This document shows, piece after piece, positions 39 through 22,296 of a DNA stretch of 24,554 nucleotides (its first letter is position 1; the number at the start of each line of letters is the position of its first letter). The notes under the pieces are model-generated. The model was given only the letters and a program-made list of their open reading frames with translations. It was not told the DNA's origin and did no database searches. Source of the DNA: a virus (lineage: Duplodnaviria; Caudoviricetes). The position numbers and the translations under genes were made by a program. The stretch covers positions 1 through 24,554 of the IMG/VR virus record IMGVR_UViG_3300017902_000260; one strand, 5' to 3'.

Positions 39-157
39 TGTCTAGTAGATTTTGCCCAGTTTGCGAAGAAGATTTAGAACTACAACCAGAGGAGCGTGAT
101 GTAGGCATAGAAGGCCTATATTATTGTCCGGATTGTGAATACACAGAGGAGATATAA
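38..157 (+). CDS. 39-aa zinc-ribbon micro-protein (MSSRFCPVCEED...YYCPDCEYTEEI)
   Basis: Translated by hand, absent from the ORF track. AGGAG SD at 26-30, CPVC and CPDC pairs, stop 2 nt before the next ATG. Confidence 0.75.
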   Translation: MSSRFCPVCEEDLELQPEERDVGIEGLYYCPDCEYTEEI

Positions 158-159
158 AT

Positions 160-360
160 ATGAGTATTACATTTAGCAGAGAATCAATTCACGACGTTCA
201 GGACGTGATTGTTAAGCGTAGATCGGTAGAGGCCGTAGGCACTACTTGGGATACTTTCGACGTGGAAATAATAGACACTGACGGCAATAGAAAAGCTTTG
301 ATGCTGTTTGCCGCTGAAGGTAAAACCATGAGGTTTCAGAGGCAGGACGATGAAAGTTAG
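160..360 (+). CDS. hypothetical early protein, 66 aa
   Basis: GAGGAG SD upstream and tight packing with neighbours. Confidence 0.75.
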   Translation: MSITFSRESIHDVQDVIVKRRSVEAVGTTWDTFDVEIIDTDGNRKALMLFAAEGKTMRFQRQDDES

Positions 361-976: not shown

Positions 977-1150
977 TTCTATAGTATACTAAAGATACTT
1001 AATATAACCATAATCATCATAATAAGTATTCTTTAGTATTCTATAGAAAGAGAGATAATAGGAGTTAGGGTTGATCTCCTAACAACTATAGGAGAAGGCA
1101 CTAGAAATAGTGTGTTCATTTGCGGAGGAAGACCGTTATCTCTCTTTTTA
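977..1150 (+). ncRNA. structured 5' leader or small RNA candidate upstream of ssb
   Basis: ~25-bp imperfect stem 977-1001/1023-1048; 12-bp perfect stem 1047-1058/1136-1147 enclosing short hairpins including GCACTA-GAAA-TAGTGT; ends in a T run. Confidence 0.5.
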
Positions 1151-1183
1151 AACTTAAAATGGTAACATATAGGAGAACCACAT

Positions 1184-3209: not shown

Positions 3210-4921
3210 TTTATCTGGACATAGAAACTAACGGTTTAAATGCCAGTAAAATCTGGATGGCCGTAACAAGGCAGGACGGAGGTGTTTTAGTGCACTATAC
3301 TCCGGATACCCTTCAGGAAGTCCTACAAGGCTCAGAGAAGGTGATTGGGCATAACCTAATAGGATATGACCTCCCGGTCTTAGAATCGCTCTGGGGCGTT
3401 TCTGTGGCTCCTGAGAGGGTAGTTGACACTTTGGTACTTTCCAGACTAGCTAACCCACAGAGGGACAAGGGACATTCCCTGCGCTCTTGGGGAGAGAGAT
3501 TAGGATTTCCCAAAGGGGACTACAACGATTGGACACAGTGTTCTCAGGAGATGGTGGACTATTGTATTCAGGACACAGCGGTAACTGAGAGAGTGTATCT
3601 GGAAGTTTACGACGAACTACTAGGATTTTCTCAGGAATCCATAGACTTAGAACACAAAGTTCAATTTATTATACAAGAGCAGGTACGTAATGGATGGCTG
3701 TTGGACGAAGAGAAAGCCTACATGTTACTTGCGGAACTAAAGGAGAAAAAACTTGCGATTGAAGATGAAGTTCAAAAGACTTTTTTACCGTTACCAGTAT
3801 TTGTTAAGGAGGTGCAACCAAAGATTAAAAAGGACGGTTCTCTTTCAATAGTAGGACTCAAGTTTCTAGGAGATTCTTGGGACTCTGTTGAGGGACCGTT
3901 CAGCAGGATAGAGTTTCCTCCGTTTAACTTAGGGTCCAGACAGCAGATAGGTAGGTACTTACAGTACTTTGGGTGGAAGCCCTGTAGCTTCACTGAAACT
4001 GGTCAACCGATAGTTGACGAAGGAACTCTGTCAAAGATAAACGACATACCGGAGGCTAAATTAATTTCAGAGTACCTGATGGTACAGAAACGAACTGCAC
4101 AGGTTCAAAGCTGGATTGATGCAGTCTCACCAACTACAGGCAGGGTTCACGGTAAGGTTAACAGTAATGGAGCGGTAACGGGACGTATGACTCATAACAG
4201 TCCTAACCTAGCTCAAGTACCTGCGTCCTACAGTCCTTATGGTAAGGATTGCAGGGAGTGCTGGTCCGTCCGTGAAGGCTACAAACTAGTGGGTTTTGAT
4301 GCGAGTGGTCTTGAGTTACGCATGTTGGCTCACTACATGAATGACAAGGAATACATAAATGAAGTGGTCAATGGAGACATACATTCAACAAACCAAAGAC
4401 TTGCTGGCCTTGAATCACGAGATACAGCAAAAACTTTTATCTACGCCCTTCTATACGGGGCAGGAGATGCGAAGCTTGGATCAGTGGTTGGGGGCAACCA
4501 AAGGGCAGGTAAAAGCCTTAGAGAGCGTTTTAGCAGCAATCTCCGCTCATTTGGAGTACTTAGAGAAAGAATACAAAGCAAAATCTCTTATGGACCACAA
4601 ATGGTAACTGGATTGGACGGTAGGTTGGTACACGTTAGGTCACAGCACAGCGCATTAAATACCCTGCTGCAAAGTGCCGGGGCCATAGTTATGAAACAGG
4701 CTTTACTACTCTTGGACGACTACGCTAAACAGTGGAAACTGGACTATAGGTTCGTAGGTAACATCCATGACGAAGTACAGACGGAGGTGAAGACGGATCA
4801 AGCTGAGAAGTTTGGTAGGCTGGCGGTTAGCTGTATTGAGGCTGCTGGTAATCACTTTAAATTAAACTGTCCCTTAGCAGGGGAATACAAAGTAGGGAAC
4901 AACTGGTATGAAACACATTAG
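3206..4921 (+). CDS. polA: family A DNA polymerase with 3'-5' exonuclease, T7 gp5-like
   Basis: ExoI LDIET, ExoII HNLIGYD, ExoIII YCIQD; motif A DASGLELR, motif B RDTAKTFIYALLYG, motif C IHDE; TTG start overlaps the upstream TGA. Confidence 0.97.
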   Translation: MIYLDIETNGLNASKIWMAVTRQDGGVLVHYTPDTLQEVLQGSEKVIGHNLIGYDLPVLESLWGVSVAPERVVDTLVLSRLANPQRDKGHSLRSWGERLGFPKGDYNDWTQCSQEMVDYCIQDTAVTERVYLEVYDELLGFSQESIDLEHKVQFIIQEQVRNGWLLDEEKAYMLLAELKEKKLAIEDEVQKTFLPLPVFVKEVQPKIKKDGSLSIVGLKFLGDSWDSVEGPFSRIEFPPFNLGSRQQIGRYLQYFGWKPCSFTETGQPIVDEGTLSKINDIPEAKLISEYLMVQKRTAQVQSWIDAVSPTTGRVHGKVNSNGAVTGRMTHNSPNLAQVPASYSPYGKDCRECWSVREGYKLVGFDASGLELRMLAHYMNDKEYINEVVNGDIHSTNQRLAGLESRDTAKTFIYALLYGAGDAKLGSVVGGNQRAGKSLRERFSSNLRSFGVLRERIQSKISYGPQMVTGLDGRLVHVRSQHSALNTLLQSAGAIVMKQALLLLDDYAKQWKLDYRFVGNIHDEVQTEVKTDQAEKFGRLAVSCIEAAGNHFKLNCPLAGEYKVGNNWYETH

Positions 4922-5780
4922 TACACTAGTTCCGGACATATATAAATTAGTTAAGACTAAACGTGTTGACAGTGAAGTGGACGCTGAAGCGGAGATAGAA
5001 CGCTTTGGTGAAGCCATGAAGGACTTGATGCGTAAGGAGTTCGTAAACAAAGGTTTTGACGCTCGAAAGCTACGCTTGTCCAACATAGGTAGGGACGACC
5101 GATACCTGTGGAACCATTTCCGGGGAGTAGCCAAGGAAGCTATAGAACCGCATACGTTGGTTAAGTTTCTGTACGGTCACTTAATAGAGGAGATGTTGTT
5201 GTTCCTGACTAGGATGGCAGGACACACAGTTACCGACGAACAAAAGGAATGTGAGGTTGAAGGAATCAAGGGTCACATGGACTGTAAGATTGACGGAATA
5301 GTAACTGACGTTAAGTCAACTAGCTCCTACGGTTTTAAGAAGTTCAAGGACGGATCACTGGCCTTTGACGATCCCTTTGGTTACATAGACCAGATAAAGG
5401 CATACGCCTACTCTGAGAATGAAACCAAGTTTGGTTGGCTTGCCATGGACAAACAGAACGGACATTTGACTTTTCTCCAGTACGACTTGGAGGACACTCA
5501 GGCTCCTGTTTATGAAGTCTTGAAGGAGGACATAGCTGAGAGGATACGGCACGTAAAAAAGCTGGTAGGGGTAGAAGAGCGGCCTTTACCCTGTTACGAG
5601 CCATTGCCAGATGGAAAGAGTGGGAACCTGAAACTCGCCGTAGGCTGCTCTTACTGTCAGTTCAAAAGATCATGCTATCCGGACTTGCGAGTATTCGCTT
5701 ACTCTACAGGTCCACGTTTTTTAATAGAGGTAAAAAATGAACCGAAAGTTCCTGAGATCAAAGAAAAAAGTTCCGTTTAA
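4908..5780 (+). CDS. PD-(D/E)XK nuclease, Cas4/RecB-like exonuclease
   Basis: GHMDCKIDG..DVKS core, YIDQIKAY motif, C-terminal CSYCQFKRSC. Confidence 0.8.
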   Translation: MKHISTLVPDIYKLVKTKRVDSEVDAEAEIERFGEAMKDLMRKEFVNKGFDARKLRLSNIGRDDRYLWNHFRGVAKEAIEPHTLVKFLYGHLIEEMLLFLTRMAGHTVTDEQKECEVEGIKGHMDCKIDGIVTDVKSTSSYGFKKFKDGSLAFDDPFGYIDQIKAYAYSENETKFGWLAMDKQNGHLTFLQYDLEDTQAPVYEVLKEDIAERIRHVKKLVGVEERPLPCYEPLPDGKSGNLKLAVGCSYCQFKRSCYPDLRVFAYSTGPRFLIEVKNEPKVPEIKEKSSV

Positions 5781-6144
5781 GGAGATGTTTAGATCCGGAC
5801 TTGAAAAGACGTTTGCCACTCTTTATCCAAAGAAGGATTTTGTTTACGAACCTTATGACGTTCCGTACATAACCAAAAGGACTTATAAGCCTGACTTCGT
5901 ACACAAGCCAACTGGCAAAATGATTGAGTGCAAAGGTTATTTTAGACAGGGGGACACACTAAAGTACAAAGCAATTAGGGACTGTTGCGACGACGAATTA
6001 ATATTTGTTTTGTCGGACCCCTTTAAAAAAGTACGAAAAGGTGCTAAAATAACTATGTCTCAATGGTGCGACAAGGAAGGGTTTAAATACTTCACAGTAC
6101 AACAAAAAGATGAGCTAATGGATTATGTCACTAACAATGAATGA
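5737..6144 (+). CDS. Holliday junction endonuclease I, T7 gp3-like
   Basis: FRSGLE, YKPDF, IECKGYF and WCDKEGF motifs. Confidence 0.9.
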   Translation: MNRKFLRSKKKVPFKEMFRSGLEKTFATLYPKKDFVYEPYDVPYITKRTYKPDFVHKPTGKMIECKGYFRQGDTLKYKAIRDCCDDELIFVLSDPFKKVRKGAKITMSQWCDKEGFKYFTVQQKDELMDYVTNNE

Positions 6145-8703: not shown

Positions 8704-9027
8704 ATGGTTTTAAAACAAAAAGATTTTTCAAACATAAGTCAAAAAGAGTTAGCTAATTCTAAAAAAATATTTAAAAGTGAAACTCCTAAACATGATTTGT
8801 CTTGGTACATTAAATGGGCTAGTTCAATTTTAATTATTGCAGCAATACTGGTTAGATCCGCTGGAATTAGTCCCTTAACTGATTTATCACTATCATTTTT
8901 AGGTTGTCTTGGTTGGTTAGTAGTAGGGCTTTTGTGGAAGGACAGAGCTTTACTAATTCTTAATTCTGTGTGCTGTTCAATACTAGCTACTGGAATACTT
9001 AATTACATTGTGGAGAACTATATATGA
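8704..9027 (+). CDS. three-TM membrane protein, DUF6552-like
   Basis: Three hydrophobic helices; KWASS and GWLVVGLLWKDRALLILN motifs (family recalled from memory). Confidence 0.65.
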   Translation: MVLKQKDFSNISQKELANSKKIFKSETPKHDLSWYIKWASSILIIAAILVRSAGISPLTDLSLSFLGCLGWLVVGLLWKDRALLILNSVCCSILATGILNYIVENYI

Positions 9028-11048: not shown

Positions 11049-13016
11049 CTAGTAGTTTTGCTCTTCTTGTTCCGCGCCTAGAGTGGATTGAGCAGCACCT
11101 GTTAACATACCTGTCCTCCTTCCTACAGTTAAGTAGTCTTTCATATTAGCTTTAGGATCTATTTTACCTAATGCTCTCATATGGTAAGTTACTGGATCTT
11201 CTATGGAAATAAGTTCGCCTTGTTTGTTGTATTCTCTTTTTCTTTCAATACCATATTTTTTTTCAAATTTATTTGCAGCTTCTTCAGTTTTCTTTTGTAT
11301 TTTTTCTTTGTTTAAATTATCAGTTTTATCAAAAACTGTATATTTATTTTTTGTGTTGTTAACTTGAGTTTTAAATCTTTTCTTAGCTGATTCTTTATTT
11401 TTTATTTCAGTTAAAAGTTTTTTGTTTTCTTTTTCCCATTCTTTATATTTTTTTGTATTTTTACCAACTTTATTTCCTTCTGAAGTTTTAGGAACTGGAG
11501 TTAATTCTTTGTTTAACTCAGTTATTTTATTGTCAATATTTTTAATTTGTTTTTCTAAATTATTTACTTTTTTTCTAAGAGGAGCGTCTTCAGCATGTTT
11601 TTTAAAATTAGATCTTTGAGTAGGGGATACAGCAATTAATCCTTTGCCTCCTAATGGATTAATTCCAAACATATCATGTTGATCGCTAATAGTGGTAAAT
11701 ACATCTCCAGTTTCAGGATTAATAGAAATTATGTTATTAACGCCACCTAACTCTTTTTCTCTGGAACCATGACTGTCACTTATATGTAAAAAGCCATCAT
11801 TGTCGTCTGTTAGGTTGTATCTTTTATTTTCTCCTGCTTTTTCTAATACTCCATTTAAATAACTGTAGTAAGCTTTAATGTCGTTTTTATTTAATTTAGC
11901 AACGTCTTTTTTAGACCATGCAGATAAACCTTTTGCTACTACATTATCTTTAGAATCTTTTTTAGAAGCTAAAGTAACTTTATCTTGATCCAAAGCTTTT
12001 AGCGCAGTTGTTCTAGGAACTGCTGAAGATTGCCCTAATTTAGCTTCATAACCTAAACCTGAAGTTTTTCCTTCAGGATTTTTTATTTTTATATCAGTAT
12101 TGTCTTTGTTAAATTTCCAAACTTTTGGATTATAGATATGTCTTAAATGTTTGTTTTTTACTGCGTCAGGAACGTCATAACCTATGTTAACACCTTTGGA
12201 AAATAACTGTCTGGATACTTCCGCTGTATTGTTTGCTTTCACAACAGCTAATTCGTCGGCTACTCCTAATGGTCCTTCTCCTATAGCAGTCGTTCCCGGT
12301 TTAGCTCCTCTTTGTTGAGCTATAGATTCAGCAGTAAATGCTGCTCCTATCCTATCTCCTCTAGGTCTTTCTGTTAAATTTCCTTTTGAATCATATTGTT
12401 TTGTTTCTGAAATATCTTTAATTTTTCCTTGAGGCAAACCTGTTGTTCTTTCATATGCAATAGCTTTGGGATTAAAAGTATTTTTAATTGAAGTAGGAAA
12501 AGATTCTAAAAATCCTTTAGCTCCTACAAAACCTTTACTAGCTTTTCCAACTCCCGGTCCGTAAAAACCCTCAAGCAAAGTTTTTACTTCAGCAGCAGGT
12601 CTATTTGCTGCTTCTTTAACAATTCTAGCTATGGGAATAACACCAGCTACGTCTACAGCAGCCATTACGTTTTCAGCAGCCCTTGGGTTTTCCTGTATGT
12701 ATTGTGCTACTGCTTGTCCTGCATCAGTTTCAGAAAGATATGCTCCTACGTCCCGAAGGCCTTCCCCTACTGCACCGCTAAACAAAGCTTCGTCCGTTGC
12801 TGATAGTGCCGCACCTGCTGCGTCTGAAAATGGTGTAAAAGCTAAATTTACGTGACCAGCTACATTTCTAATTCCTCTTTCCCAATCAGTTATTTCACCA
12901 GCTTCAAATTGTTCCTGTGTTTTAGTTCTATCGTCGTACCACTTATCACCAATGTTAGAAACATATTCTTTAGCTTTCTTAACTCTATTAAGTATATTTT
13001 GTTCTATTGAAGACAT
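11049..13016 (-). CDS. large putative internal virion/ejection-associated protein, 655 aa
   Basis: Last of the post-tail cluster, TAATG-coupled to the upstream gene; its N-terminus resembles part of the 541-aa neighbour. Confidence 0.55.
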   Translation of the reverse strand: MSSIEQNILNRVKKAKEYVSNIGDKWYDDRTKTQEQFEAGEITDWERGIRNVAGHVNLAFTPFSDAAGAALSATDEALFSGAVGEGLRDVGAYLSETDAGQAVAQYIQENPRAAENVMAAVDVAGVIPIARIVKEAANRPAAEVKTLLEGFYGPGVGKASKGFVGAKGFLESFPTSIKNTFNPKAIAYERTTGLPQGKIKDISETKQYDSKGNLTERPRGDRIGAAFTAESIAQQRGAKPGTTAIGEGPLGVADELAVVKANNTAEVSRQLFSKGVNIGYDVPDAVKNKHLRHIYNPKVWKFNKDNTDIKIKNPEGKTSGLGYEAKLGQSSAVPRTTALKALDQDKVTLASKKDSKDNVVAKGLSAWSKKDVAKLNKNDIKAYYSYLNGVLEKAGENKRYNLTDDNDGFLHISDSHGSREKELGGVNNIISINPETGDVFTTISDQHDMFGINPLGGKGLIAVSPTQRSNFKKHAEDAPLRKKVNNLEKQIKNIDNKITELNKELTPVPKTSEGNKVGKNTKKYKEWEKENKKLLTEIKNKESAKKRFKTQVNNTKNKYTVFDKTDNLNKEKIQKKTEEAANKFEKKYGIERKREYNKQGELISIEDPVTYHMRALGKIDPKANMKDYLTVGRRTGMLTGAAQSTLGAEQEEQNY

Positions 13017-14641
13017 TATTCTTTTTCTTCTTCTACTGGAGATTCGTTAAGTATAGAAAGTAAAACTAACCTGTCCGCTTTTATCTGTTCAGCTACGTCG
13101 TCCATACCTCTTTTACCAGCTTCCTTTATTGCTGCTCCAGAATCTTTAATCATGTTGTACACTAAAGCTCTGGCTGGTTTTGACATAGCAATTTTACCAG
13201 CACTAAAAACAGTACCAACTACCGCTGCTGTTGTTAATAAAGGCCAGAACTGGTAAATAGCGTACCCTGCTGCACCTGCTGTTGCTGCTTGTGCTAACGC
13301 TGTTTTAGGTACAAACTGTCCAATATTTTCATGGAATCTAGAAAGAATTGTTCGTCCTTCTGAATTTCTTTTTTTAGTTAATATTTCATCAGCTTGAAAC
13401 AATGCAGATTGTTTTCTTAAACTTTCCTTTACGTCTACATTGGTTGCATTTTTATCTATAATATCATTTATAGTTTTACCTATAGCTTTTCTAGCTAATT
13501 CTGTAGCTCCTAATTCAGAAGGTTCTAATATTGTTTTTTGTTCACCTATAAATTTATCTAAAGATTTTCTTGCTTGTAATAAAGAAACTAAAGAACCATC
13601 TCCTTCTTGTATTAACCTAACTGCTTCAGAAAAAACTTTTTCCATTGTTTTAGCAGGGTTACCTTTTAACAACCTTTGAGTGTCTAGTATACTTTGAGCA
13701 GCAGTGTCTAATTGTCTAATAACATTAGCTTTATCTAAAACTACAGTTTCTCCTGCTAGCCTAGACTGAAGAAAAGAACCTTCTCTTTCAATAGCTTCCT
13801 GTACTTTTTTAGCGTTCCAAGTATACGTTTTACTAGGATCAATATCTTTACCTTCAGTTAGTATATCTATTGTTTCTATAGTATAAGGATTTTTTGGATT
13901 GTAAGTAACTTTTTGAGTAAGATCAGTAACGTCCAAATCTTTTATGTCTATTTTAGTTTCAGGATCTAACATAGCAGTAATTTTATCTCTACGTTCTCCT
14001 TTAATTTTAGCTCTTACTCCTTTGGATAAGTTACCCCCTGTAGTTTCCAGTGTTGTTCCTGCTTTAGTAATTACACCTTTAGGTCCGGGTGCTGCTATAA
14101 TTCCAATGTTAAAATAAGCTTCTAATAATTCCGCTGTGTCTTCATTTTCCTGAGAAGAATTTTTCCACTTTTCGTATTCTTCCATACTTTCCGATGCAAG
14201 CCTTAGTCCTATTCTTCCTGCTTCACTGTTTGCTAACCATTGTCCAGCGTCTTCAACTGCTGCAACCATAGCGTCAGGAGTAATTGCTTCTAGACCAGTA
14301 AGTATTGCATCTCCTGCTATTTCTCCTGCTCCCCCAACTATGTCACCAGTTACTCTAATTAGTTTTGCACTTAACGATAATTTATCGTCTTCTATACCAA
14401 AACTAGGCCTTTCTAAAGTTTCTCGAATACTGCTTGTTCTGCTTTCAAGAACATCTCCACTTCGTTGGAGTAAAGTGCTTTGTGGTTCTAAATTAGCAGC
14501 AGGGTCTGGAACAGGAGTTACAGAAGATGATGGGGGATAAAGTCTTTCTAATTCGTCAGCCAACTCGTTAGCTGCACTTATATCTCCAGCAGTATTAGCT
14601 TTGTTTATAGCGTCAATAAATTGTTCTTTAGTGTAATTCAT
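13016..14641 (-). CDS. putative ejection (internal virion) protein, 541 aa
   Basis: Helical Ala-rich composition, N-terminal AGDISAANELA helix pair, C-terminal hydrophobic segment, synteny. Confidence 0.6.
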   Translation of the reverse strand: MNYTKEQFIDAINKANTAGDISAANELADELERLYPPSSSVTPVPDPAANLEPQSTLLQRSGDVLESRTSSIRETLERPSFGIEDDKLSLSAKLIRVTGDIVGGAGEIAGDAILTGLEAITPDAMVAAVEDAGQWLANSEAGRIGLRLASESMEEYEKWKNSSQENEDTAELLEAYFNIGIIAAPGPKGVITKAGTTLETTGGNLSKGVRAKIKGERRDKITAMLDPETKIDIKDLDVTDLTQKVTYNPKNPYTIETIDILTEGKDIDPSKTYTWNAKKVQEAIEREGSFLQSRLAGETVVLDKANVIRQLDTAAQSILDTQRLLKGNPAKTMEKVFSEAVRLIQEGDGSLVSLLQARKSLDKFIGEQKTILEPSELGATELARKAIGKTINDIIDKNATNVDVKESLRKQSALFQADEILTKKRNSEGRTILSRFHENIGQFVPKTALAQAATAGAAGYAIYQFWPLLTTAAVVGTVFSAGKIAMSKPARALVYNMIKDSGAAIKEAGKRGMDDVAEQIKADRLVLLSILNESPVEEEKE

Positions 14642-15978
14642 TGTAAATATTTTTGTGCTCTTTCAGATAATTGTGTAGGAACAACAGAATCTACTTTAAA
14701 AGTTATTAAAGCCTGTCCTCCGACTCCTTCTTTGGCATATGAATCATATACTTTTTTATGAACTTCTATTTTTCTTTTAGCAGCTTCGTCTCCAATTTCC
14801 ATTAATCTTTTAAGATTTTCTACAGTTAATCCCATTTCTCCTGCTGCGGCTTTTGCAGCTAACGCAGCGTCTTTATCCGAAAGACCTGTACCTGCACCAA
14901 ACATTTGTATTTGGTTTCCAATTTCTCTTACTCTAGTAGCCATAAATGCTTGAATATTTTCAGTACTTTCTATAGCTGAACCGGTAGCTCCAAATGACTC
15001 AGCCAATAATAAAAGGTTTGATTTTAAATCAGCTAAAGGACCACCTACAATATCAAACTCATTGGAAGCTAAAAGTTCTCTACCTTTTTCGTTAAGCACT
15101 AATGTTTCTACTGCTTGTCTAGCTTGTTTTGTTAACTCACTAAATTCAGTTACAGATTGTTTTGTTAGTTGAGAAGTTAAATCGTTTGCATTATTGTATG
15201 TTTCAGTAACTGTAGGAGCTTCCACTAAATTTTTTTCTTTAGGTTCTATCCATGTTGTAACACCGTCAGCATTTGTATCCGCAATCATTCCATATTTATT
15301 TTCTCTGTAAATTTCTACTTTTCCTTGAGCGTCTTGATAAGCTACTGAATCTGCTTCTTCTCCGGATAAAACTTTAGCAAATGTGTCGTCATCTAAATTA
15401 CTGTATTGTTTAACCTGTTCTTTTGTTAGTCCAGCTTGCCTTCCTAAAGCAATCCTTCCTGCTTTTCCTTCATTTTTAGCAATAGCTGCAATTTCTTCCG
15501 CTCTTATTTCCTTACGTATGTCTACTAACATTTCTCCTGTAGCGTTGGCTATACTGTCGTTTCTTTCTTTTGGGCCACCTATTGCTTTATTTCTTTCAAT
15601 TAAAGAAGTTCTTAAAGATTGATCTCTAGTTTGTTCAGCTACTTTAGTTTTTCGTTGTTCATCCAAAGCATCAATTTTTATTTGAGCTTCTAAAGCTCCA
15701 GCGGTGTCTCCTCTGGATCTGGCATAATCTCTTTGAACAACTAATATTTCTCTTGTTCCAGTAGCAGATTTAAGATTATCTTTGTAAACTTCAAAATCAC
15801 TTCTAAAGTCCGCTCCCGGCATTACAGCACCAAGCATTTTTTTAATGCCTCTACCAGCACCACTACCAAACTGTTGTGCAGGAGTAACTGGAGCCATTCC
15901 TTGCCCAGATCCAGTTAACATTCCTTCTTTGCCAAAGTTTCTTATGGCTTCCAATGTTGAAGAACTTAATTTAGCCAT
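14638..15978 (-). CDS. putative ejection (internal virion) protein, 446 aa
   Basis: Helical composition, FGAGTGLSDKD motif, synteny. Confidence 0.6.
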   Translation of the reverse strand: MAKLSSSTLEAIRNFGKEGMLTGSGQGMAPVTPAQQFGSGAGRGIKKMLGAVMPGADFRSDFEVYKDNLKSATGTREILVVQRDYARSRGDTAGALEAQIKIDALDEQRKTKVAEQTRDQSLRTSLIERNKAIGGPKERNDSIANATGEMLVDIRKEIRAEEIAAIAKNEGKAGRIALGRQAGLTKEQVKQYSNLDDDTFAKVLSGEEADSVAYQDAQGKVEIYRENKYGMIADTNADGVTTWIEPKEKNLVEAPTVTETYNNANDLTSQLTKQSVTEFSELTKQARQAVETLVLNEKGRELLASNEFDIVGGPLADLKSNLLLLAESFGATGSAIESTENIQAFMATRVREIGNQIQMFGAGTGLSDKDAALAAKAAAGEMGLTVENLKRLMEIGDEAAKRKIEVHKKVYDSYAKEGVGGQALITFKVDSVVPTQLSERAQKYLQ

Positions 15979-15983
15979 TTGTT

Positions 15984-17021
15984 TTAATCCTCGCCAAATA
16001 TACCACTAATTATATCACCAAACCAACTACCACCACTTTCAGTACCGCCTCCACCAAGAGCGTTAGCGTAAATAGATTTTAAGAAATCAGCTTTAGCTAG
16101 TTCAGTATTCATTAATCCTTCAAGACCTGCACCTGCTGATTCATCAAACAAACCAGCACCATAACGTCTACCCATGTCTGCTATTGAAGCTAAGTTAGTT
16201 CCTGCTCCAAGCTGTTCCAACATCATTTGTTCAGGCATGTACTGTAAACCCATCATCTGAGCTAAATTCTGACCTTGCATACCTTGTAGTTGTAAAGGTA
16301 ATTGAGAACCTTGTGCACCTAACCCAAACAACCCTGTAGCTGTAGCTAAGTCTTGCGCTCTTTCCTGTCCTGCTTGACTCATAGCAGCCAAAGAAGCTTG
16401 GTTCATTGCTTCCGCTCTAGCTTTTTCCTGTGCAAACTGTTCAGGGGAACCTCCAAACATTGCTGTAGACAACCCTAATCTACCTTGGCTTAACAACTGA
16501 TCGTTAAGCAGTTGTCTTTGTCTGTTTTCTTCAGGAGTCTGTGTAGCTCTTATGCGATCGTATATTTGTTGTTCTCTAGTTCCTCTGTCCCCTGTTACTG
16601 AACTTAACAAATTACCAACACCACCAAATGCTTGGCTTCCAATAGTTCCAGCCATGCCGCCTGTAGGATCTGCACTATAACCTGATCCTAACATTCCTGA
16701 AAGAATGTTTTGCACTCCTGTTGTTTGTGCTGCTGCTGGTCCACTTAAAGTATTACTAACGCCACTAAATTCTCCAGTTTCCGGATCAACTAGTGCACTT
16801 GTAGTTCCTGTTCCACTGGTAATAGTAAATGGTTTAAACTGAGATTTTTCAAAAGCTTCTTCACCAATTTTAGGAAAACCTTCAGCTAATGTACCACCAA
16901 CTTTAGACAAACGGTCCATAACGTCTTGAGCAGCAGCGTAGTTAGCTCCTGTTTCAAACAAACCCCCAAGAAAGTCAGATACACCTTCTGGTAGTCCTAA
17001 TTTATCAGTTAAAAATCCCAT
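15984..17021 (-). CDS. putative DNA transfer/pilot protein, Gly/Gln/Ala-rich, 345 aa
   Basis: Composition and position first in the ejection cluster. Confidence 0.6.
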   Translation of the reverse strand: MGFLTDKLGLPEGVSDFLGGLFETGANYAAAQDVMDRLSKVGGTLAEGFPKIGEEAFEKSQFKPFTITSGTGTTSALVDPETGEFSGVSNTLSGPAAAQTTGVQNILSGMLGSGYSADPTGGMAGTIGSQAFGGVGNLLSSVTGDRGTREQQIYDRIRATQTPEENRQRQLLNDQLLSQGRLGLSTAMFGGSPEQFAQEKARAEAMNQASLAAMSQAGQERAQDLATATGLFGLGAQGSQLPLQLQGMQGQNLAQMMGLQYMPEQMMLEQLGAGTNLASIADMGRRYGAGLFDESAGAGLEGLMNTELAKADFLKSIYANALGGGGTESGGSWFGDIISGIFGED

Positions 17022-17025
17022 TTTT

Positions 17026-17301
17026 CTATCCTACCTTATTCCCAAACACCAGTTCCCTGCTAACTGTGTAGCAATAACTTCCCGGTGTAGGTCTGATTTC
17101 AAAACCATTTGATCTAAAAAAACTATATTCTATTCTGCTCATTGTATAACCAAAGTAATCAGGATTGACTAAACATTCCTTGTGTATTTTAAACCGTTCT
17201 TCTTCCAAAGGATGCTGAAAATAATTTAAAGGTTCAACTGTCGTAGCACAGCCAATTATAAACAATGCTAAAAGTAAACTAAGTATTATCCTCATTTTCA
17301 T
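17026..17301 (-). CDS. lipoprotein, 91 aa
   Basis: Basic N-terminus, hydrophobic core, lipobox IIGC; two further Cys. Confidence 0.75.
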   Translation of the reverse strand: MKMRIILSLLLALFIIGCATTVEPLNYFQHPLEEERFKIHKECLVNPDYFGYTMSRIEYSFFRSNGFEIRPTPGSYCYTVSRELVFGNKVG

Positions 17302-17470
17302 CTTTTTTCAAAAAACTCCTTATAGTTTGTGTTTCATATATACGGATACAAGTCCATACTAATGTTGCTAAAGCTGCCAAAGGAGGCAACCATCCCATTA
17401 ACGCTGAAGCAGTAGTAGAGACTGCTAATACGTCCACCCCTGACTTAACTGCTTCAGTATCTAATGACAT
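17279..17470 (-). CDS. small membrane protein, holin-like, 63 aa
   Basis: Hydrophobic core (LMGWLPPLAALATLVWTCI) and charged tail; follows the tail fibre genes. Confidence 0.55.
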   Translation of the reverse strand: MSLDTEAVKSGVDVLAVSTTASALMGWLPPLAALATLVWTCIRIYETQTIRSFLKKDENEDNT

Positions 17471-17737
17471 TTATCCTAGTCCTCCTGCTTGAGCATCAAC
17501 AAAAGCTTTGTGTGCTGCCTTGGCCTCGTCAGTAAAATAAATCTCAGCCAGCTTCTTTACCTCATCAGTTTGGCCGCTGACATCTGAATTTGGATCAAGA
17601 ACGTGTCTATGAAAATTTCGAGACAATTCGACTCCATCGTCAGTTACAATCGTTGCTGTACGCACCTGAATGTTTGTCCAAGTTTGTACTGCAAGAAGCT
17701 CAATTTTATCTTCTCTTGTTGTTTTTTCTAAAGCCAT
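17471..17737 (-). CDS. small tail-fibre partner/chaperone-like protein, 88 aa
   Basis: DKIE..IQVRTAT..DGVELSRNFHRHVL pattern; AAGGAG SD; directly downstream of the second fibre. Confidence 0.6.
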   Translation of the reverse strand: MALEKTTREDKIELLAVQTWTNIQVRTATIVTDDGVELSRNFHRHVLDPNSDVSGQTDEVKKLAEIYFTDEAKAAHKAFVDAQAGGLG

Positions 17738-17758
17738 AGTTTTCTCCTTTTGTGTCTG

Positions 17759-17778
17759 TGCCTACCGTCCAGTAGACA
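17759..17778 (-). promoter_or_regulatory. RNA hairpin upstream of the RBS of the 88-aa gene
   Basis: UGUCUAC-UGGACG-GUAGGCA on the - strand (7 bp, one G-U pair). Confidence 0.4.
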
Positions 17779-17792
17779 TAAGTTTGAAAGTT

Positions 17793-18923
17793 TTATGAAT
17801 CTGTAGTTAACATTCCCATAACCATTATGTACTGAAGACTGCCACCGTTATAAGTAGCAAGAGAAACGGCTCCATCATCTACAAAAACTGCATTTGTATT
17901 ACTAACATTTACATATCCACCTCTACTATTACCATCTACCGCATTACCATGAACATAATGAAACAATGTATATCCAGTGCTATTTGAAGTAAAAGGTAGC
18001 TGCGTTAATGTAGCGTTGCCAGAAGCAGAATTAATTGTTAGTCCTCCTGAGTACCAATACCACCAAACCATCTGTCCTACTTTGACGTAGTAGGCAGTAG
18101 TGTTTCCAGCCGCGATTGTACCACCATCTATACCTATGGTAAATGAGCCTTCTTCATAGTCATCAAGGGCGTTGGCTGCTGCGGTGTCTGTTCCAAAACA
18201 AAGACCATTAGTATTAAATTGTCCCGCTGTAGTCCACGCAATATCAGTGCCGCCAGTTGTGGCTGCTGCGGATCTAAAAACGTGCGCTCCATTATGCTGA
18301 TAATAATTAGAAGCTTCATCTGTTGCTATTGCTTCCCAAGAACCGTCTGTATCAAGGTGAGCATTTTGTGATATGTGTAATGATCTTCCTGCTGAACTGG
18401 CTGTTTCAGCGGCAAAACCAGCTAATCCTCCTATACTTAATTGAGCATAGCCAGTATAAAAATCTTGAGGAGAACCTCCAATACCTACAGCGTTTTTTCC
18501 TGCATCTACAACAAGCATATTAGCATTGCCATCAGACTCAACACGGAAATCCCTATCTATACTATCTTCATTAATAACAATTTCAGTTGGATTAATTTCT
18601 AATGCGTTTCTAACTGTTCCAGCAGTTAAAACATAGGTGGTTAACTTAGCATCTTCAGTACCGTCTGAGGCATCAACAATTTGTCCTAGTATTGAAACAT
18701 GGTCTAAAACTTCACCAGCATCATTGTCTGCTTGAAGTTTAATATTTCCAATATAATCATTATCTGCTGGAGAACCTGAATCTCTTTGTAAATTTAAAAC
18801 AGGGCCAGTATTTGCATCAGCGTCAGTGCTTTTTAAAGTTAACTGAGTTGTGTTATCTGCTGTGCTAATAGTTATACCAGCATCAAAGTCTACTACGCTT
18901 GGTGAGATTTTAGTTATTGCCAT
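17793..18923 (-). CDS. secondary tail fibre / receptor-binding protein, 376 aa
   Basis: DFRVESDGNANML, ANALDDYEEG, YVKVGQMV and LPF fibre-type motifs; no virion anchor domain. Confidence 0.75.
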   Translation of the reverse strand: MAITKISPSVVDFDAGITISTADNTTQLTLKSTDADANTGPVLNLQRDSGSPADNDYIGNIKLQADNDAGEVLDHVSILGQIVDASDGTEDAKLTTYVLTAGTVRNALEINPTEIVINEDSIDRDFRVESDGNANMLVVDAGKNAVGIGGSPQDFYTGYAQLSIGGLAGFAAETASSAGRSLHISQNAHLDTDGSWEAIATDEASNYYQHNGAHVFRSAAATTGGTDIAWTTAGQFNTNGLCFGTDTAAANALDDYEEGSFTIGIDGGTIAAGNTTAYYVKVGQMVWWYWYSGGLTINSASGNATLTQLPFTSNSTGYTLFHYVHGNAVDGNSRGGYVNVSNTNAVFVDDGAVSLATYNGGSLQYIMVMGMLTTDS

Positions 18924-18939
18924 TTATGTTTTCTCCCTG

Positions 18940-19215
18940 TTAAAGGCCCTCAGCCTCGTCACGCTCTTTGCGTGTTTTATAATCATCTCTGCCAGTTACC
19001 AAGGTTACAAAGTCTGCTTGGTTGCTTGGGATAGGATCTGTAAAGCTATCGTCATTCATTAGCTTGGTAGTCCATTCTGTTTGCATACGCTTCCAGCAAT
19101 TATTTTGTTTGCCAGTTACTGCATCCTCTATCCATGTTTTAATGTCTAACAAATCATTGTTCATGATTGCTTGCATTGTGTCGTTCACTGTTATTTCTAC
19201 TTTTAAATCTGCCAT
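18940..19215 (-). CDS. small tail-fibre partner protein, 91 aa
   Basis: AAGGAG SD; directly downstream of the C1q-tipped fibre. Confidence 0.6.
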   Translation of the reverse strand: MADLKVEITVNDTMQAIMNNDLLDIKTWIEDAVTGKQNNCWKRMQTEWTTKLMNDDSFTDPIPSNQADFVTLVTGRDDYKTRKERDEAEGL

Positions 19216-19248
19216 GTTTTATCTCCTTTAAGATAGGTTATTTCGCCT

Positions 19249-22200
19249 TTAGTGTAATAATGAAATTGATGCGTAAGACTGACCATCAAAGTCAGTTTGT
19301 TGTGATCCACCTGATTGATTCATTTGAAAATAAACAGTGTCCCCAGCATCCATGTCTATCACTGCTGACCATTGCATATCCCAATAATCTGCATCTGCAC
19401 TTAAATTTGGATCAAAAATTGAATAGTATGTTTTATTAGTAGATACGATATAAAGCTGGTAATAACCTGCCGCATTATCAATATCTTTCATATATAAATT
19501 GACACAAACTAAATATCTTCCAGTTACAGGAGCACTAAAAGTATTAGTGCCTGTGTTGAAATCACCATTTTGGTCGAATCTCACAGTATCAAAATCTAAT
19601 GTTGTGGCATTAGTAGCCATATTATTTTGGTCACTTAATTGAACACCAACACTAGATTGTGCTGGCATAGTAACGTGGCCAGAATTATCAATAGTCATTC
19701 TGATTGTGTCATTGGTTGCAAAAGTCATTGCACCGTTTTGAGTGTTTTCAATATTTAAATCAGCAGCGGTTCCGCTTTGATTGGCGTAACCAATTAAACC
19801 TAAAGCAGTAGCACTACTTGAAACAGTGCCTCTAAAAGACAGATAGGCAAACTCATCATCACCTTCAAGTCTTAGTGTTTCAGCACTAGTACCATAAACA
19901 TGAAGCTTTGCGGCTGGATCTATGCCGATGCCTAATTGGCCACCGCTGTCCAACGTCATATTAGGCGTATCACCCTCATAGCCAGAACGACCAGCGGCAA
20001 AGTGAAGATCCTGAGAACCGTTTGTAGAGGACACTTTGCCCCACAGACCGACAAAGTGATCTTCCGTTCCATCGGTGTCTGAGTTTCCAATTAGAAATGC
20101 ACCAGTTTTATCGTTTACTGCGACTGAAGTATCTGCTCTAAAAGCAATAATTTCAGAACCAGTTGCGCTGCTGCTTACAAGTTGATTGCCTAAAAGAACT
20201 CCTGTGGGGACAGTTGAAGTTCCATGAAGTAACTTACCAGCGGAGTCAATAACCAACCGCTCAGTACCAGCAATATCAAAGCGTATCTTGTCTTCATCGC
20301 TGGACTCTTCTACCTGTATCTTAGTATCACTGTCAGCATCAAGTAGCTGATTAGCAGTAGTGCTAGAGGTTGAAACTAAAGTTATACATTCAACCGCAAC
20401 ACCAGTGGGAGGTGCTGTGCTAAATGTTAAAGTAGAGCCAGAAACAGAGTAAGTTGACTTGTGCTGCATAACTCCATCGAACGTCACAAAAGTAGCATTT
20501 TCATTTAAAGGAGCAGAACTTAAAGCAAGAGTTGTGTCTGAGTTATCTCCTGTCATCGTATCAATTACAGGTGCAGAACCACCTCCACCACCAATAGCTC
20601 CCCAAGAATCTGTGTACCCTTCAAATTGACCAGTAGTACTATTGTACCTAAAGTATCCTGCGGCTCCTGTGGGCCTCTGTGCTGTTGTACCTACAGGTAC
20701 GTGTACAGCATCTGTAGCACTTCCAATGTCAAGAGAGACATCAGGAGAAGCATTTAGAATACCTACTCTATTTTCAGATGAATCAACTACTAATGTATTT
20801 GAATCCCAATTAAAGTCTCCTGTTCCACCTGTTAGTGCAGTAAGAGTTCCTAAGCTTGTAATGTTTGGCTGTGCAGCAGTTTGTAATGTACCTGTGAGAT
20901 TGCCTGAGAAGCCTGTAGCAGTCAAAAGACCTGTAGAGGGGTTATAAGTAAGCCCTGTGTCTGTTTCCGCTCCCTGTGAGCCTGTAGCTCCGTCTACGAA
21001 TACAGGGTATACTGTTTCATCAGTTGAATTATTTGCGGAGACTGTAAAGTTATCCGCTGTACCTGTAGTATCTTGGTTAAGAGTACCTACTGTAAAGTCT
21101 AATGTATTGTCTGAGTCATCGTATGCTACTGTAATACCGCTTTCTGTATTTGAGCTAACCATAGCTCCTACAGTATCTGCAATAGTTTCTGCTAAAGTAA
21201 CTCCATCAACAGTAATAGCGTCTGCTTCTAAAGTTCCATCAACATCTACATTTCCAGATATGTCTAAAGTTGCAGCAGCAAGCTGACCACCTATTGTTAA
21301 GTTACCAGAACTAGGATTATAGGTTAACCCTGTGTCACTTTCTGCTCCTTGAGAACCTGTTGCTCCGTCCACAAAAATAGGATATACAGTCTCATCTGTA
21401 CTATTGTTTGCAGAAACTGTAATATTATCTGCTGTTCCTGTAGTGTCCTGATTAAGCGTTCCAATTACAAAGTCTAAAGTATTGTCACCGTCTTCGTATG
21501 TAACTGTAATATTTGTTTCTGTGTTAGAACTAACCATAGCTCCAACTGTATCAGCTATGTATTCACTTAAAGCTGTGCCGTCTACAGTTATTGCGTCAGC
21601 TTCAAGTGTTCCGTCTATGTCTGCATTACCACTTATGTCCAGTGTGGCTGCGTCTAGCTCACCTGTTAATGTAATGTTTCTAAAACTACCAATGTCTTTA
21701 TTACTGTCTACAACTACTGCTTTACTAGCTGTAACTGTACCAGCAGTTAAATCGTCTATTTGTTCTATGTCAGCTTCTGAAATTGCAGCACTACCCATTG
21801 TAAGAGTTCCTGACAAATCTAAATTGCCATTCATGTCTATGGTAGTAGCGTTTATTTCTATTTCAGTGTCCGATACAAGATCAAGTACACCGTCTGCGCT
21901 TTGATGTATGTAAGTACCTGAGTCACCAAACTGTAGTTGTCTGGTTGAATTAATTAATAAGCCTGTGTCAGCAACGTGGGTAATAGTTGTGTCTTGGTCT
22001 GCACCAAAATAAATAATGGAACCGTCAGCTAGGAAAAGATCGCTAAATTCTAGGGAAGTAGTACCTAAGGCTGCACCGTCAGCAGCGTCAGGAACAAATG
22101 CAGTCGTAGCTACAATAGTAGGGCCAGTAACTGTACCAGTAAAAGTAGGAGAAGCTATGTTTGACTTAGTTGCTACCGAAGTAGCAATATTATCAAATTC

Positions 22201-22296
22201 GTCGTCAATCTCTGACCCTTTAACAATTTTATTAGCATTACCAGAAGGCAATGAATCTTTTGCGGTAAAGTTAGTAGTTTTTGTATAGTCCGTCAT
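19249..22296 (-). CDS. long tail fibre with internal duplication and C-terminal C1q/TNF-like domain, 1015 aa
   Basis: N-terminal anchor (YTKTTNFTAKDSLPSG..EIDDEFDNI), Thr/Asp/Gly-rich shaft, tip FDTVRFDQNGDFN..FSAPVTGRY..MDAGDTV. Confidence 0.88.
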   Translation of the reverse strand: MTDYTKTTNFTAKDSLPSGNANKIVKGSEIDDEFDNIATSVATKSNIASPTFTGTVTGPTIVATTAFVPDAADGAALGTTSLEFSDLFLADGSIIYFGADQDTTITHVADTGLLINSTRQLQFGDSGTYIHQSADGVLDLVSDTEIEINATTIDMNGNLDLSGTLTMGSAAISEADIEQIDDLTAGTVTASKAVVVDSNKDIGSFRNITLTGELDAATLDISGNADIDGTLEADAITVDGTALSEYIADTVGAMVSSNTETNITVTYEDGDNTLDFVIGTLNQDTTGTADNITVSANNSTDETVYPIFVDGATGSQGAESDTGLTYNPSSGNLTIGGQLAAATLDISGNVDVDGTLEADAITVDGVTLAETIADTVGAMVSSNTESGITVAYDDSDNTLDFTVGTLNQDTTGTADNFTVSANNSTDETVYPVFVDGATGSQGAETDTGLTYNPSTGLLTATGFSGNLTGTLQTAAQPNITSLGTLTALTGGTGDFNWDSNTLVVDSSENRVGILNASPDVSLDIGSATDAVHVPVGTTAQRPTGAAGYFRYNSTTGQFEGYTDSWGAIGGGGGSAPVIDTMTGDNSDTTLALSSAPLNENATFVTFDGVMQHKSTYSVSGSTLTFSTAPPTGVAVECITLVSTSSTTANQLLDADSDTKIQVEESSDEDKIRFDIAGTERLVIDSAGKLLHGTSTVPTGVLLGNQLVSSSATGSEIIAFRADTSVAVNDKTGAFLIGNSDTDGTEDHFVGLWGKVSSTNGSQDLHFAAGRSGYEGDTPNMTLDSGGQLGIGIDPAAKLHVYGTSAETLRLEGDDEFAYLSFRGTVSSSATALGLIGYANQSGTAADLNIENTQNGAMTFATNDTIRMTIDNSGHVTMPAQSSVGVQLSDQNNMATNATTLDFDTVRFDQNGDFNTGTNTFSAPVTGRYLVCVNLYMKDIDNAAGYYQLYIVSTNKTYYSIFDPNLSADADYWDMQWSAVIDMDAGDTVYFQMNQSGGSQQTDFDGQSYASISLLH
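20920..21657 (-). repeat. two tandem copies of a 125-aa (375-nt) module in the tail fibre
   Basis: LDAATLDISGNAD...YNPSSGNLT versus LAAATLDISGNVD...YNPSTGLLT, offset 375 nt. Confidence 0.95.

Follow-up and report, generated by a model that had tools for sequence, protein, structure and literature searches.

Comparison with close relatives showed that bases 1047-1157 of the window (by which we mean the whole 24,554-nt stretch analysed, positions 1-24,554 of IMG/VR record IMGVR_UViG_3300017902_000260) are an optional insert at one fixed slot, which runs from a conserved leader hairpin to the start region of the ssb gene. As judged from its modelled fold, its absence in relatives and a diverged copy, the segment 1047-1147 (+ strand), hereafter cassette A, is a real, uncatalogued, optional structured RNA cassette with a predicted closed four-way junction; a switch acting on ssb translation, which a first-pass annotation of the same DNA had proposed, was not demonstrated. 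The record is linear (24.5 kb, 65% complete) and comes from a T7-like podovirus whose nearest isolated phages share ~45% identity in the primase and 57% in NrdA; runs containing the region were nearly all marine. Its replication run begins with ssb (1184-1558, + strand), which encodes a gp2.5-like ssDNA-binding protein (PHROG 112, E 2e-7), and continues with primase/helicase, DNA polymerase A, a Cas4-like exonuclease, endonuclease I and NrdA/B, the virion genes lying on the opposite strand.

We compared the slot in all fetched loci with an ssb 90-100% identical and with upstream DNA (n = 24), a set that leaves out one locus starting inside ssb (L010) and four loci at 39-40% identity. Conservation of cassette A upstream of ssb was not found in this set: 22 of the 24 loci were empty, the leader hairpin lying just 33-37 nt from the ATG, a count that is biased and is not an allele frequency, since the set excludes records very close to the window. 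The two others carried a 212-nt spacer with a different insert (insert B), and none of the 24 carried cassette A. Several close loci have identical upstream sequence, and after removal of two evident duplicate records 20 of 22 were empty. Two related genomes, G001 (98% complete) and G004, matched the window at 92-97% identity on both sides of the slot, and the BLAST alignments broke at 1046 and 1158, so that 111 nt (1047-1157) in the window replace 7 nt; the replaced segment thereby includes an A/U tail (1148-1157, + strand), and the Shine-Dalgarno (SD) sequence of ssb, TAGGAG at 1170-1175 (+ strand), is common to the empty alleles. Since empty alleles were present in the 100%, 91% and 90% ssb lineages and no cassette A homologue was found upstream of ssb in the distant relatives fetched, insertion would be more parsimonious than repeated loss. 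Contigs spanned the whole of cassette A in all six DNA runs, from six studies (X2, X3, X4, X6, X10 and X14), which shows that it is not an assembly error; these runs were chosen for containing the stretch, and X14 and X3 were near-identical to the window. Copies at the ssb site were almost invariant across runs.

Other length differences were seen elsewhere in the genome. A DUF6552 gene between nrdA and nrdB (8704-9027) is missing from G001 and G004 and is an ordinary optional protein-coding module. Both genomes have ~360 extra nt at window positions 147-169, and G001 has ~300 extra nt at the polymerase/exonuclease junction (4906-4920); short overlaps at these two breakpoints suggest deletion or insertion at direct repeats. 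A stable hairpin (379-421) lies in the gap that precedes a small gene at 486; on the minus strand, the 101-nt segment at 347 had z -5.1. The long minus-strand gene run at 11049-22296 is mostly unannotated, and conservation is poor even in the close relative G001, which is 98% complete. Among its products are a protein of 1015 aa with a C1q domain and a transglycosylase, and the run is likely a host-range variable region.

The predicted fold of the region was exceptionally stable, which bore out the earlier proposal of a multi-branch structured element in the predicted ssb leader. The segment 1044-1183 folded at -43.6 kcal/mol (z -5.7) and 1047-1147 at -38.1 kcal/mol (z -6.2), values equalled by none of 200 shuffles in either case. 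The opposite strand of 1047-1147 reached -29.6 kcal/mol versus -38.1 on the + strand, and three G-U pairs in cassette A likewise favour the + strand. Cassette A ranked first among 490 101-nt windows of the contig, in a ranking whose grid was in register with it and used 12 shuffles each, a design that favours cassette A. The motifs listed in the first-pass annotation were all confirmed at their positions, namely two 12-nt complementary arms (1047-1058/1136-1147), TAGGAG at 1059, 1089 and 1170, CTCCTA at 1076-1081, a GAAA hairpin at 1098-1113 and a CGG/CCG hairpin at 1123-1135. TAGGAG is over-represented genome-wide (31 copies versus 13 expected), so three copies near cassette A are unremarkable by themselves.

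In the predicted fold (all elements on the + strand), the arms pair as a closing stem, P1 (1047-1057 with 1137-1147), as had been proposed, except for A1058, which joins the first inner helix and pairs with 1136 at p 0.056. The terminal inverted repeat that underlies this stem is perfect over 12 nt and 93% identical over 15 nt. Arm P2 (1058-1089) consists of 4 bp, a 2x2 purine internal loop, 7 bp (1064-1070/1077-1083) and a 6-nt loop, and contains the proposed anti-SD CTCCTA; P3 (1094-1117) is capped by a GAAA (GNRA) tetraloop at 1104-1107; and P4 (1122-1136) has three G-C pairs, one G-U pair and a 7-nt purine loop holding the sole loop-exposed GGA in cassette A. When the predicted full leader (982-1213) was folded, the P1 pairs of 1047-1054 kept p >= 0.995, and the energy needed to open the SD was 2.35 kcal/mol versus 0.94-2.91 kcal/mol in five empty alleles, with 1.18 and 2.37 kcal/mol in two insert-B alleles. 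The paired ends together with an SD opening energy like that of empty alleles argue for a self-contained structure. The P2 segment also holds a possible 3-codon mini-ORF (1059-1082: TAGGAG, 6 nt, TTG plus two codons, stop), which may be due to chance; its start sits in the P2 loop.

A diverged copy was found in a 1544-nt contig of run X2 (record 7), whose alignment to the window is confined to 1049-1146 (10 substitutions and 4 gap bases), the sequence to either side being unrelated. The alignment ends coincide with the closing stem P1, and a copy in unrelated flanks argues that cassette A is portable. As read from the alignment, the pair 1100/1111 is replaced on both sides, A-U becoming G-C, and 2 bp are lost at the tip of P3, whose loop is still a GNRA tetraloop; a change at position 1093 removes both the TAGGAG at 1089 and the GGA of the junction. 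The other six of the 10 substitutions lie nearer the ends, at positions that were not listed, and may keep or break pairs. The T run following the closing stem is absent from the tail of this copy. On a weak reading of its flanks (30 loose letters on each side), an apparent stop codon shortly precedes it and an A/T-rich tail follows. In run X10, a C1078T change keeps its P2 pair as G-U, although this was seen in one contig at depth 2.8 and could be an error. The two variant contigs together gave one compensatory pair, one 2-bp stem shortening with the GNRA loop retained and one G-C to G-U change, a set of sequences too small for statistics. In RNA runs, one contig covered 998-1232 (X16, depth 2.3) and a low-depth contig covered 1133-1364 (X17); contigs of this kind cannot show strand, ends or transcription.

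Insert B, the alternative occupant of the slot, is ~180 nt long (L128:896-1077 and L124:973-1154), unrelated to cassette A, and uses the same two junctions. The copies in L124 and L128, one in a 90%-type and the other in a 100%-type ssb background, share 96% identity, which suggests exchange between lineages. Several hairpins make up the fold of insert B, in which the two sequences show one compensatory pair; alternative or pseudoknot-like pairings were also noted by eye. Its 5' end carries an SD and a 4-codon mini-ORF, which the possible mini-ORF in P2 parallels, and run X10 also contained the 3' end of the insert. Searches with insert B returned no Rfam match at E <= 1 in the insert-B loci, no match to an 18-mer pattern, no hit of a covariance model in 50 related virus records, and nothing meaningful by BLAST in phages.

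The 5' boundary of the slot is H0, a long A/U-rich leader hairpin (977-1046, + strand; z -7.1), and both inserts begin at its 3' base. H0 was kept in all nine aligned close alleles, where both partners had changed in 4 of its 21 pairs, and in a second group (n = 12), where this was so for 2 of 20; the two groups were folded separately, as their joint alignment was out of register and gave no consensus. Judging from these alignments, H0 is the conserved part of the leader, unlike cassette A. More broadly, 45 of 69 non-redundant ssb leaders folded at z <= -2, versus 8 of 69 coding controls. H0 is a candidate RNase III site, SSB-feedback element or DNA cruciform, and the phage encodes endonuclease I (5737-6144).

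Upstream of H0, a repeat search found direct repeats 10-11 bp apart (911-959, + strand), among them two heptamers separated by 4 nt in the manner of a Pho box (942-959, + strand), a candidate site for PhoB or another OmpR-type activator. In Pho-regulon promoters, a pair of direct 7-nt repeats spaced 4 nt apart (box layout as in PMC4415409) precedes a -10 element, and 942-959 together with the downstream -10-like hexamer TATACT (970-975, + strand), 10 nt past the box, has this Pho-regulon promoter layout. With a pattern written after viewing the sequence, and hence post hoc, 942-959 had no mismatch, 14 of the 24 close loci had at most one, and no distant locus matched. According to PMC10976474, PhoB binds upstream of a cyanophage DNA polymerase gene, and Pho boxes predicted in phages cannot be relied on unless binding is tested. 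TATACT is kept in close relatives, and by eye a -10-like hexamer lies ~100 nt before ssb in many distant ones; a standard sigma-70 scan did not call a promoter at TATACT. From this arrangement we infer a transcription start near 982. The Pho-like repeats are doubled in two loci (L120 and L121), and five others (L006, L009 and L124-L126) have a different repeat pattern; the operator itself seems variable among strains.

Searches for relatives of cassette A were in line with the first-pass annotation, which had matched it to no riboswitch: the window gave no Rfam 15 hit at the gathering threshold, and at E <= 10 the interval 900-1250 gave only two hits, both at chance level (E 0.68 and 9.4). Pattern scans of viral contigs returned 19 matches to the terminal repeat, none homologous, no match to an internal 22-mer, and none to the flank motif of the second context. 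An 18-mer common to both known copies matched three viral and 15 GTDB sequences, all unrelated, with no structured copy among the 15; a 15-mer from P4 matched 64, with a best model E of 0.05, all judged to be chance. A single-sequence covariance model, with the window's own record as positive control, hit none of 50 related virus records (drawn from roughly 90 viral loci, 7 of the 50 being >= 90% complete). BLAST of cassette A in phages and plasmids gave nothing meaningful. ARAGORN found no tRNA or tmRNA gene in the window, and resemblances to pistol, twister and hairpin ribozymes, SRP and SAM-I were dropped, as none had an Rfam match.

We lean towards reading cassette A, at a little less than an even chance, as an accessory RNA that is non-coding and portable, a kind of RNA "moron" that probably binds a host or phage protein and leaves the ssb ribosome site free. 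Transcription would start from the Pho-box-like promoter near 982, and cassette A would be co-transcribed in the leader of the replication operon, where it would fold on itself with both ends paired and the SD untouched. Recombination in the flanking DNA may exchange cassettes between phages. A stable ~100-nt RNA could possibly be released by a cut next to the closed stem, and a protein-binding or decoy role might fall to P3 with its GNRA loop, the purine internal loop of P2 and the 7-nt loop of P4. Covariation in favour of this reading comes from one diverged copy and thus allows no statistical test.

Phage morons are optional units between conserved neighbours, exchanged among close relatives. 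Cassette A shares their optional character, of which the DUF6552 gene is a protein-coding example in the same genome; unlike them, it is non-coding, ~110 nt long, without its own promoter or terminator, and placed inside the predicted leader of an essential operon. It also resembles the ~100-nt intergenic ncRNA between PHIKZ298 and PHIKZ297 (PMC8545117) and the viral structured RNA candidates of PMC10690425, being, like them, a ~100-nt structured RNA from a phage intergenic region with no assigned function. In contrast to those RNAs, cassette A, whose expression is here a prediction, is insertion-polymorphic within a single phage population, where an unrelated RNA insert can occupy the same slot. 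We found no sequence link to the PHIKZ RNA or, in the part of its supplements covered, to the PMC10690425 candidates. A published description of cassette A was not found either; its motifs were absent from that part of the supplements and may be listed in the remainder.

Near-neutral hitch-hiking is a serious rival to the accessory-RNA reading, and the near-invariant copies at the ssb site fit a recent neutral insertion equally well. On this view, cassette A would be a near-neutral or selfish mobile mini-element of the MITE or REP kind, retained because the paired ends conceal it from the ribosome site, its fold aiding movement or just rendering it harmless; we consider this unlikely, though well worth weighing. 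Bacterial MITEs, ERIC/IRU, REP and RUP elements are short and non-coding, with a terminal inverted repeat, a stable fold and presence/absence polymorphism. Cassette A is insertion-polymorphic, has an 11-12-bp terminal inverted repeat of the type that defines MITEs, occurs in two unrelated flanks, and has no predicted effect on the ribosome-binding site (RBS); moreover, GNRA-like loops are also stable in single-stranded DNA. Unlike these elements, it showed no target-site duplication, either in the 24 close loci or in the flanks of the diverged copy, and duplication of a TA target was excluded by G1046, which is kept in all 24 close loci. It is present once in its own 65%-complete record, in none of the 50 related records, and in no bacterial genome as a structured copy (15 GTDB matches to one pattern), and no transposase was found among the 28 ORFs scanned. 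An unrelated insert at the same junctions also points to recombination in the flanks rather than to end-specific transposition.

A portable cis-acting leader module that tunes the replication operon, by stabilising the mRNA, by terminating part of transcription at the T run or by binding protein on the intact mRNA, appears rather unlikely to us. Such a role is consistent with the position of cassette A in the predicted 5' UTR, where it ends 22 nt before the ssb SD, and with the A/T-rich tail of the second copy, which may run into an RBS as read from 30 loose letters. The T run noted in the first-pass annotation does exist, as five T at 1145-1149, and follows or overlaps the closing stem; three of the five are paired in that stem, however, and a terminator scan made no call. 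An intrinsic terminator, in which a GC-rich hairpin runs straight into a U tract, was rejected on that scan and on the loss of the T run in the diverged copy. Against a cis role in general, the operon works without cassette A in most relatives, and the predicted opening of the RBS is unchanged.

The repeated GGA motifs had also been put forward as CsrA/RsmA sites, and a CsrA/RsmA decoy or a CsrA-controlled leader now looks very doubtful. Cassette A contains four GGA, with one more in the SD, and in having several GGA in a short structured RNA it resembles the CsrB, RsmY and RsmZ decoys (PMC4005645 and PMC8545117). The high-affinity CsrA/RsmE site is an ANGGAX hexaloop on a stem, and a missing N, extra loop bases or pairing lower affinity (PMC4005645). 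One of the four internal GGA lies in a hairpin loop, that of P4, in the A-GGA-X form that binds RsmE weakly (same source); none fits the ANGGAX hexaloop, two show at least partial pairing, and the diverged copy lacks the junction GGA. Thus, unlike CsrB, RsmY and RsmZ, cassette A has a single loop GGA, none in a high-affinity hexaloop, and no Rfam match.

The first-pass model had CTCCTA toggling between an internal TAGGAG and the ssb SD, and thereby shutting off ssb translation. The complementarity behind it is real and extends over ~12 nt (1070-1081 with 1170-1181; duplex -10.1 kcal/mol), and a 10-nt repeat is common to 1087-1096 and the ssb RBS. In the equilibrium fold, computed without pseudoknots, proteins or ligands, CTCCTA nevertheless paired with 1064-1070 (p 0.996) rather than with the TAGGAG at 1059 (p 0.0015); in the predicted leader 982-1213, C1079 paired with G1068 at p 0.996 and with the 1089 copy at 0.0001. 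Pairing of CTCCTA with the ssb RBS had p < 1e-6, cost 16.4 kcal/mol at 37 °C and 21.1 kcal/mol at 20 °C, and, when forced, dismantled the whole junction. During simulated transcription a local register shift was predicted, the 1059 register being dominant (0.75) only with the transcript ending at 1083 and shifted by 1095, ~75 nt before the SD appears; the inner hairpin was predicted to have closed with ~90 nt still to be transcribed before the SD. When 1047-1070 was kept from pairing, CTCCTA still preferred the 1089 copy (0.57) over the SD (0.02).

The variants point the same way: the diverged element, which lies away from ssb, has an altered 1089 copy, and C1078T weakens the anti-SD yet keeps the local pair. 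Translational riboswitches have a multi-helix junction in the 5' UTR and an SD-complementary sequence that sequesters the SD; unlike them, cassette A has no Rfam match, an alternative fold 16-21 kcal/mol worse, and no conservation at ssb. A CTCCTA switch on ssb translation is thus disfavoured by the computed folds and not supported, and we regard it as highly improbable.

Phage accessory content is nearly always counted as protein genes, and rare optional RNAs would tend to escape covariation surveys. On a broader proposal, which we advance as a speculation and think distinctly unlikely as a whole, this widespread group of uncultured marine T7-like phages would keep a dedicated expression slot from the leader hairpin to the ssb start, into which unrelated structured RNAs (a four-way junction and a pseudoknot-like RNA of 180 nt) are swapped. 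Made from a phosphate-responsive promoter when replication begins, these RNAs would be interchangeable decoys or mimics able to disarm the host's RNA-binding regulators or its defence systems, amounting to an RNA-only accessory gene pool. The three natural alleles (empty, A and B), found among phages 92-97% identical over the replication module, offer a ready comparison for an optional phage RNA. Should the cassettes bind host proteins, the few phage RNAs that act on the host would gain further members; if the cassettes are neutral, a striking leader fold need not regulate the downstream gene.
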